Shown here: one piece after another, positions 23,832 to 24,599 of the stretch
Numbering within the stretch: position 1 is the stretch's first letter
Layout: every line of letters begins with the position of its first letter
Virus record (IMG/VR): IMGVR_UViG_3300032298_001311
Coordinates: 32,001-96,000 of that record
Reading direction: 5' to 3' (one strand)
Length of the DNA stretch: 64,000 nucleotides
Source: a virus
Translations under genes and position numbers: made by a program
Notes under the pieces: model-generated
The model's database searches: none
Told to the model about the DNA's origin: nothing
The model's input: the letters and a program-made list of their open reading frames with translations, nothing else

Positions 23832-24599
23832 TTAATCAGCGAGGAGGGCGACGCCGTCCTTACCAACTAGAGCATGTACTCTTCCGAGGATCTGTAGAAC
23901 AACACCAAATACACCTAGTGCCATCCAACCAAAGAACACAAAGCCCCAATGTAGAGGTGCTACGAAGAGCTCTTCCATAAACCAGAATGTATGACCCCAC
24001 TCATTGAGACCAACATTTGGAATAATCATGAACGGACCAATAGCAACGATCAAGAATGCTAGTGAATAGCCCTGAGCGAAGTATGGGATACGTGTTCTTG
24101 CGTAGAAGAACGCACCAACAGCAATAACGCTGTAGATTGGGTAGCTCATGTAGAACTCAATGATGTGACTTGGAGTGAAGTCAGTATCACGAATAACTGT
24201 CATGTGCCAAGTTCCGTCCTGCTCTGTAAAGAACGAAGCACCCCAGTAAATAGCAACACCGTAAACTACGAGCCACTGTACAAGGGTTACAAGGCGACGC
24301 ATTTCTTCACGAGGAGTTACGTTAGCTAGATCGCGATCGCGAGTCTTCCAAAGATAACCAGCAAGTCCTAGTCCAGAAACTAGTTCTAGTGGAATCTCTG
24401 TCCAAAGGATTGACATCCAATATGTCTGGAACTCTGGAGCAAATGAATCTAGTCCAGCTCTCCATCCGAAGACCTGCTCATAGATACGTACAATTAGATA
24501 GAAAACATTTAAACATGCTAGTCCGATCCACATACCACGTAGATCAACAACCTGTGCGTCTGTGTCCGCAAGTGCGGTAGTCTTAGTAAGTGTTGCCAT
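23832..24599 (-). CDS. pmoC: Particulate methane monooxygenase subunit C (stand-alone)
   Basis: YEQVFGWRAGLDSFAPEFQTYW, FFTEQDGTWH...DFTPSHIIEFY, NVGLNEWGHTFWFMEELFVAPLHWGF; AGGAGA RBS; no pmoA/pmoB adjacent. Confidence 0.97.
   Translation of the reverse strand: MATLTKTTALADTDAQVVDLRGMWIGLACLNVFYLIVRIYEQVFGWRAGLDSFAPEFQTYWMSILWTEIPLELVSGLGLAGYLWKTRDRDLANVTPREEMRRLVTLVQWLVVYGVAIYWGASFFTEQDGTWHMTVIRDTDFTPSHIIEFYMSYPIYSVIAVGAFFYARTRIPYFAQGYSLAFLIVAIGPFMIIPNVGLNEWGHTFWFMEELFVAPLHWGFVFFGWMALGVFGVVLQILGRVHALVGKDGVALLAD

Follow-up and report, generated by a model that had tools for sequence, protein, structure and literature searches.

A stand-alone pmoC gene under purifying selection, accompanied by a Methylocystis-type ftsH, in a large phage predicted to infect methanotrophs

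We analyzed a 64,000-nucleotide (nt) stretch of viral DNA (hereafter the window), which covers positions 32,001 to 96,000 of the 128,772-bp IMG/VR record IMGVR_UViG_3300032298_001311 (CheckV completeness 36%), with a focus on its pmoC gene, encoding the C subunit of particulate methane monooxygenase (pMMO), and on the genes and signals that accompany it (Table 1). The record has a GC content of 35.1%, uniform at 30-42% throughout, and contains 20 tRNAs and a transfer-messenger RNA (tmRNA) in 128.8 kb; in the window we found 18 tRNA genes and the tmRNA, together with genes for a tail fibre, ribonucleotide reductase (RNR), ClpP, DnaK, Hsp20 and FtsH. The RNR large subunit was closest to that of jumbo myophages with genomes of 350-380 kb, among them GAP32, CBB and 121Q. 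The pmoC gene stands alone, as the initial annotation of this DNA had stated: searches of the window, of the whole 128.8-kb record and of the surroundings of 80 viral pmoC loci yielded no pmoA or pmoB. The bacterial pmoC loci examined comprised 46 operonic and 31 stand-alone loci.

Table 1. Positions of pmoC, its expression signals, the other main elements and neighbouring genes in the window
Feature	Position	Strand	Remarks
pmoC coding sequence, intact, 255 amino acids	23832..24599	(-)	ATG 24599-24597, TAA 23834-23832; family and ligand matches
Shine-Dalgarno sequence AGGAG, 7 nt before ATG	24607..24611	(-)	sequence reading
Leader hairpin, perfect 10-bp stem (GAGCAUCACU...AGUGAUGCUC)	24633..24682	(-)	segment of about 50 nt, missing from the relative L016
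TATAAATA, T4-type late-promoter-like motif, 163 nt before ATG	24755..24762	(-)	inside palindrome GACAAG-N10-CTTGTC
Sigma-70-like promoter TTGACA-18-AAAAAT, 10/12 matches	24785..24814	(-)	TTGAC conserved in L016
Intrinsic-terminator-like 12-bp hairpin (23781-23805) and U-rich UUCUUCUU (23773-23780)	23773..23805	(-)	begins 27 nt past stop
Next transcription unit: perfect TTGACA-17-TATAAT promoter (23746-23774) and tRNA-Ser(gct) (23647-23736)	23647..23774	(-)	3' limit of pmoC cassette
ftsH, 605 amino acids, FtsH_ext, AAA and Peptidase_M41 domains	13719..15536	(-)	Walker A/B, second region of homology and HEGGH intact; full length
Two-piece alpha-type tmRNA (RF01849, 123 bits), tag ANDNFVASEIALAA	45886..46248	(-)	host marker
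Outer-membrane beta-barrel protein	7551-8396	(-)	
Bax1-I/YccA-family membrane protein	19515-20204	(-)	
RlpA-like protein	22814-23320	(-)	
Small open reading frame	23460-23618	(-)	
Radical-SAM protein	25636-27747	(-)	

The pmoC product matched the Pfam family AmoC (PF04896) with 363.7 bits (cut-off 26.7) over profile positions 5-244 of 245, and it exceeded the cut-offs of two NCBIfam equivalog models, TIGR03078 (338.3 bits; cut-off 280.6) and NF041641 (361 bits). The top NCBIfam label was AmoC_BACT, which is outweighed by the structure and tree comparisons. The top solved relative was PmoC of Methylocystis sp. M (3RFR_C, E 2.7e-155), and the solved Methylocystis PmoC chains gave E values of 1e-143 to 1e-155, the best of them, those of strains M and Rockwell, reaching 1e-152 to 1e-155 at about 94% identity, whereas the solved AmoC chains gave 1e-62 to 1e-64, indicating a protein of the pMMO rather than the ammonia monooxygenase type. 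In the tree, the window PmoC was placed within the Methylocystaceae PmoC clade, and its best-segment identity to Methylocystis-like genomes was 92-95%.

Both copper sites described in the initial annotation are present. The CuC ligands (D-x3-H-x12-H) are D128, H132 and H145, with identical residues aligned in 3RFR_C and 4PHZ_K, and the CuD ligands (N-x3-H-x13-H) are N199, H203 and H217, each motif occurring once in the protein. The spacings are the same as in PmoC of Methylococcus capsulatus (Bath), where CuC is bound by Asp156, His160 and His173 and CuD by Asn227, His231 and His245 (PMC12576850), and the PmoC pocket with CuC and CuD is regarded as pMMO's active site (PMC11725843). Compared with the bacterial majority, 28 positions differed, mainly at residues 2-17, 90-93 and the C-terminus, and these differences were confined to positions that are also variable among bacteria. 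All bacterially invariant residues were retained; a single invariant column showed a difference, namely an inserted Ala15 in the variable N-terminus. Furthermore, no phage-specific signature residues (present in at least 80% of phage and at most 10% of bacterial sequences) were found.

The pmoC locus is genuine large-phage DNA and not an assembly chimera. Exact contigs of 2172 and 1387 nt, from a run that is possibly the source sample, span the 3' and 5' pmoC junctions with even depth, and a contig from another study, about 94% identical, spans the start of pmoC and the sequence upstream of it. The position of pmoC is shared by a diverged relative (L016), in which the order ClpP-DDAH-...-2-oxoglutarate oxygenase-pmoC-RlpA is kept with neighbouring proteins 45-90% identical, and an identical PmoC protein is present on a 347,511-bp contig. 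IMG/VR labels the record as a provirus, which is probably a pipeline artefact, because the GC content is uniform without a host-like flank and the same PmoC occurs on the 347.5-kb contig. This label, as well as the fact that assemblies often break at pmoC, bacterial and phage copies being similar (Chen et al., 2020; PMC7674155), could be taken to mean that a bacterial pmoC was mis-assembled into a phage contig or that a bacterial contig was misfiled as viral. However, the closest bacterial copies shared only 70-76% nucleotide identity with the window gene, whose GC content at third codon positions (GC3) was 0.39 versus at least 0.73 in bacteria; the junctions are bridged by independent contigs and shared by L016, and host-like GC appears nowhere in the 128.8-kb record. 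The probability of such an artefact is close to nil.

Base composition and phylogeny both suggested a long history of the gene in phages. The overall GC content of pmoC was 45.6% (GC1 0.574, GC2 0.402, GC3 0.391) versus 36.2% in the window and 55-63% in 80 bacterial copies, in agreement with the initial annotation, which had put it at about 45% and far below that of Methylocystaceae. The GC3 value can be compared with a mean of 0.247 (standard deviation 0.077) in 65 open reading frames (ORFs) of the window and with 0.73-0.91 in the bacterial copies. When pmoC was compared with nine bacterial copies (full-length amino acid identity of 82-92%), the synonymous divergence (dS, NG86) was saturated and not computable, with third-position differences of 57-63%. 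A PmoC phylogeny had been proposed in the initial annotation as a check. We built a tree from 115 distinct PmoC sequences, and in its best topology the 34 phage sequences of the alpha type, including the window copy, clustered together (support 74.9). The bacterial sequences nearest to this group came from three metagenome-assembled genomes, two of them from Lake Mendota, and both of the checkable ones had pmoCAB operons. Thus, the low GC3, the saturated synonymous sites and the grouping with 33 other low-GC phage copies support the long residence in phages that had been proposed earlier. The simplest reading, although not proven, is that one or a few old captures of pmoC were followed by spread among phages.

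The dN/dS ratio, the other measure proposed at the outset, revealed strong purifying selection. Compared with the nearest phage copy, that of L016, dN was 0.045 and dS 0.67 (dN/dS 0.065), and comparisons with seven other phage copies gave dN/dS of 0.02-0.08 at dS of 0.85 to >3, phage-phage dN being 0.04-0.08; bacterial-bacterial pairs gave 0.05-0.17. The ratios of 0.02-0.08 indicate that the function of the gene has been maintained. By our own count, seven of the eight variants listed inside pmoC in other metagenomes were located at third codon positions. It appears very improbable that pmoC is a recent or neutral capture without benefit to the phage and heading for decay, as might be suggested by the fragmented or partial pmoC genes of some phages (Chen et al., 2020; PMC7674155) and by a GC3 still about 1.9 standard deviations over the phage ORF mean. 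The frame is intact, dN has remained low in spite of the considerable dS, and the locus is kept in L016 despite neighbours at 45-90% identity, with both promoter and leader conserved.

As the initial annotation had noted, pmoC has its own ribosome-binding site and terminator, and the surrounding signals suggest that it would be transcribed as a single-gene cassette. The terminator hairpin is GC-rich (minimum free energy -21.8 kcal/mol, z -3.0) and a similar hairpin is located 3' of pmoC in L016; it was not listed by a simple consensus terminator scan. The sigma-70 promoter of the next unit (12/12 consensus) directly precedes tRNA-Ser(gct) and shares positions with the U tract that ends the pmoC terminator. 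On the other side of the gene, two candidate promoters are present within the 360 nt upstream of pmoC, namely the sigma-70-like element and the motif TATAAATA, which is the T4-type late-promoter consensus. About 100 nt around this motif were almost identical in L016, while dS of the coding region was 0.67. The long distance between motif and ATG in the window phage is due to the hairpin of about 50 nt that is missing in L016; this segment may have been inserted or may represent a small mobile hairpin, and the rest of the L016 leader is near-identical. An Rfam search of the pmoC leader and flanks returned tRNA only.

The motif was not restricted to this phage. Of the 48 distinct sequences upstream of viral pmoC in IMG/VR, 33 contained an exact TATAAATA at 65-119 nt before the start codon, compared with about 3% expected by background, and the motif-bearing loci included both alpha-type and gamma-type pmoC. 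In 16 of these 33 regions, TTGAC was present 17-19 nt upstream of the motif, a spacing at which one -10 element could be used first by host sigma-70 and subsequently by a phage late factor. The motif was on the coding strand in all eight of its occurrences in the window and in 12 of its 13 occurrences in the record. Co-expression of pmoC and late structural genes was previously reported for three Lake Rotsee phages (Chen et al., 2020; PMC7674155). The recurrent motif fits this late co-expression, and pmoC of the window phage may follow the same timing.

Two additional features were observed near pmoC in other phages. First, eight pmoC phages of 160-175 kb (L004, L005, L007, L011, L022, L036, L039 and L049) share a leader, located about 130 nt before pmoC, consisting of TTGAC-N17-19-TATAAATA and a 5' untranslated region of about 80 nt that is closed by CAAGAGTGG...CCACTTGA and contains variable inner hairpins; this leader may be a structured regulatory RNA. 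Second, L005 and L006 have a short ORF with its own ribosome-binding site right after pmoC, which starts with MKKLSGFFILVLSCL... and resembles a signal peptide; in the window, pmoC is not followed by such an ORF.

The ftsH gene of the window provided a further link to the host. It has a GC3 of 0.233, and its product was 74-79% identical to Methylocystaceae FtsH, while full-length FtsH copies from the remaining genomes sampled in the order shared 59-68% identity with it; the order-wide comparison yielded a match in 118 of 121 genomes. Copies with 44-50% identity were considered as the housekeeping gene and rejected, as the order-wide search places the housekeeping type at 59-68%. In the FtsH tree (a quick search rooted on 16 FtsH from other Hyphomicrobiales, with SH-aLRT support only), the ten phage sequences formed one clade (100) inside a clade (98) otherwise composed solely of pmoC-linked Methylocystis copies, and the unlinked FtsH copies of the same Methylocystis genomes fell outside the latter. 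This topology indicates that the phage ftsH derives from the Methylocystis ftsH copies located beside monocistronic pmoC. In bacteria, an ftsH of this type was found within 3 kb of pmoC at 14 of the 31 stand-alone loci versus 1 of the 46 operonic loci (Fisher p 3.5e-6, the loci not being phylogenetically independent), and Dam et al. (2013; PMC3794950) described a monocistronic pmoC beside ftsH for the Methylocystis strains SC2 and Rockwell. In Methylocystis parvus M6-2022, ftsH (G001:C1:397693-399497) is directly upstream of a monocistronic pmoC (400022-400747), with two overlapping frames that possibly reflect a frameshift or sequencing error.

Among GenBank phage records FtsH was rare, being detected in 33 of 50,697, many of which look like host fragments, and the phage FtsH type occurred on at least 87 IMG/VR contigs, with pmoC within 10 kb in 12 of 80. 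Among near-complete records, three alpha-type pmoC phages possessed ftsH, and a complete gamma-type pmoC phage was without it. An obligate coupling of the two genes in phages was rejected, since near-complete genomes exist with either gene alone. The window also encodes a Bax1-I/YccA-family membrane protein, whose homologue is located about 1.8 kb from pmoC, beside ClpP, in the gamma-type phages L077 and L078; YccA of E. coli is an FtsH modulator.

With regard to the host, the tmRNA of the window is of the two-piece alpha type and its tag is ANDNFVASEIALAA, versus ANDNYAPVAVAA in four Methylocystis and Methylosinus genomes. The tmRNA points to an alphaproteobacterial host independently of PmoC. 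Taken with PmoC and the Methylocystaceae-type FtsH, it suggests that the phage infects a Methylocystis-like alphaproteobacterial methanotroph. Hosts of the previously described phages had been assigned by PmoC similarity alone, with the exception of one CRISPR-supported case (Chen et al., 2020; PMC7674155).

Several neighbouring genes were also characterized. Just 3' of pmoC is a gene for a secreted RlpA-like double-psi beta-barrel protein (PF03330), with 71% identity to its counterpart in L016 and 58% to a homologue near pmoC in L036. Between this gene and pmoC is a small ORF whose product ends in a hydrophobic helix at the C-terminus; it has 52 codons if read from TTG and 38 if read from the first ATG. 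The ORF is conserved in L016 (81% identity over 43 amino acids). We considered its 52-aa product as a supernumerary pMMO helix and rejected it: no PDB match was obtained, and nothing ties the ORF to pMMO. Upstream of pmoC, a radical-SAM protein of 703 amino acids that includes a B12-binding domain is encoded between a tRNA-Gly gene and orf 27760; it is missing at the L016 locus. The outer-membrane beta-barrel protein of the window (PF13505, OmpA-like) has a gene GC content of 46.7%, which is unusually high for the phage. No pqqA was detected in the 128.8-kb record by PF08042 or a motif scan, a weak negative given that the PF08042 search also missed all control genomes.

The initial annotation had recognized that phages with pmoC are not a new class, and indeed they were described by Chen et al. 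(2020; PMC7674155) as freshwater lake phages of the Myoviridae type with genomes of 159-527 kb, GC contents of 32-44% and many tRNAs. Like these phages, the window phage is large, low in GC and rich in tRNAs and carries pmoC without pmoA or pmoB. By size class, GC content and tRNA count it fits the alpha-type group of more than 300 kb, such as CB_1 (Crystal_Bog_pmoC-phage_1; 352,383 bp, 35% GC, 23 tRNAs; PMC7674155). The cofF/RimK-type ligase reported in CB_1 and CB_2 (PMC7674155) was not found in the record fragment. The window PmoC also shows the pattern described for the known phage proteins, which are >86-90% identical to those of methanotrophs, keep CuC and diverge at the N- and C-termini. 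A tblastn search of the window PmoC against 50,697 GenBank phage records gave no match. Promoters, tmRNA, FtsH and selection measures are not mentioned in the main text of Chen et al. (2020; PMC7674155).

Three other systems are relevant for comparison. First, as in Methylocystis sp. SC2 and Rockwell (PMC3794950), a single pmoC is found outside pmoCAB in a genome that also contains the linked ftsH type, and the phage FtsH nests among those bacterial copies; in contrast with these bacteria, the phage pmoC and ftsH are 8.3 kb apart and recoded to low GC. Second, the amoC-carrying viruses that infect ammonia oxidisers (mentioned in Chen et al., 2020; PMC7674155), including bacterial amoC-phages (bioRxiv 10.64898/2026.06.18.733297), likewise have no copper membrane monooxygenase subunit other than C, whereas the window protein is much nearer to PmoC (E ~1e-155) than to solved AmoC (E ~1e-64). 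Third, a similar case exists in cyanophages, which like the window phage carry one core membrane subunit of a host energy-harvesting enzyme that is near-identical to that of the host, with the presumed aim of keeping the enzyme running. Cyanophage psbA encodes D1 of photosystem II, damaged D1 is removed by host FtsH, and expression and incorporation of the phage product have been experimentally demonstrated. The enzyme and the host group are different here; expression and incorporation of the phage PmoC are predicted, and a fast turnover of PmoC would be hypothetical.

Considering all these observations, we regard it as likely that the phage PmoC enters the host membrane, occupies the place of PmoC in pMMO and sustains methane oxidation during infection. 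The gene would be an auxiliary metabolic gene of a T4-related jumbo myophage of about 350 kb infecting a Methylocystis-like methanotroph, and an ancestor of these phages may have acquired pmoC from a lake Methylocystis lineage. Strong purifying selection has since preserved the gene, whose codons have meanwhile shifted toward the AT-rich composition of the phage genome, and it would be transcribed from a sigma-70-like promoter and a T4-type late motif, through a leader of about 160 nt with a strong ribosome-binding site, to its own terminator. Most likely, the protein would insert in the intracytoplasmic membranes and take the PmoC position of (PmoABC)3, replacing or supplementing host PmoC. 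In this way, methane oxidation, and hence the supply of energy and reductant, could continue during the shutdown of host expression, in a manner like that of cyanophage psbA with photosystem II.

A non-catalytic role of PmoC seems rather unlikely. Together with FtsH, the protein might sense pMMO assembly or serve as a decoy in it, or it might be a dominant-negative or exclusion factor that alters host pMMO or the membrane state, without any added methane oxidation. Such a sensor or decoy role was indeed speculated for the monocistronic pmoC beside ftsH (Dam et al., 2013; PMC3794950); the role of stand-alone bacterial pmoC is itself unsettled, the phage ftsH descends from copies linked to such genes, and phages only ever carry the C subunit. 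However, all six copper ligands are kept and no bacterially invariant residue is replaced, neither of which a decoy would need, and the dN/dS of phage copies (0.02-0.08) matches that of bacterial pairs (0.05-0.17). Moreover, monocistronic and operonic PmoC are identical within the same bacterial genome, and the two are thus probably interchangeable subunits.

Several points weigh against the proposal that the phage PmoC sustains methane oxidation in a Methylocystis-like host. The assembly of phage PmoC with host PmoA and PmoB, and its activity, are inferred for any phage, likewise in Chen et al. (2020; PMC7674155). As the record represents about 36% of the genome, the absence of pmoA and pmoB is established for 128.8 kb only. 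The monophyly of phage PmoC is weakly supported (74.9), the host is assigned solely by gene similarity, and a phage of 35% GC would be unusually paired with a host whose pmoC flanks have about 60% GC. The late-promoter reading rests on the motif, which was not over-represented in the window (8 found versus 10.9 expected). Finally, ftsH and pmoC are 8.3 kb apart in the window, versus 1.3-2.5 kb in other phages, or one of the two is missing: two alpha-type pmoC phages that are 98-100% complete lack ftsH, and one ftsH phage that is 94% complete lacks pmoC.

The origin of ftsH also allows a more specific, and at present doubtful, extension, in which the phage may supply the protease as well as the new subunit needed for a turnover of PmoC. 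By analogy with D1 and FtsH, the two genes would form a two-part pMMO maintenance kit from one host module, namely PmoC as the replacement and the dedicated FtsH duplicate located next to monocistronic pmoC in Methylocystis. PmoC, like the D1 protein of photosystem II, would then be a damage-prone subunit with fast turnover; damaged or host PmoC would be pulled out by FtsH, and the complex would be refilled with phage PmoC produced from the late promoter. If true, such a kit would explain why viruses carry the C subunit only, as well as the purpose of orphan pmoC copies in methanotrophs.

The pmoC gene itself represents another well-supported member of a class described in 2020. What is added here is sequence-level support, in the form of purifying selection, a late motif across alpha and gamma types and two host markers other than PmoC, where correlation stood before. 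These additions (selection figures, promoter statistics, a tmRNA host marker and the ftsH origin) are modest; the origin of ftsH in a host ftsH-pmoC pair, however, turns the question of why phages carry only pmoC into a testable hypothesis of a repair cycle. Since pMMO is the main biological methane sink, phages with its active-site subunit could alter the amount of methane oxidised by infected cells.

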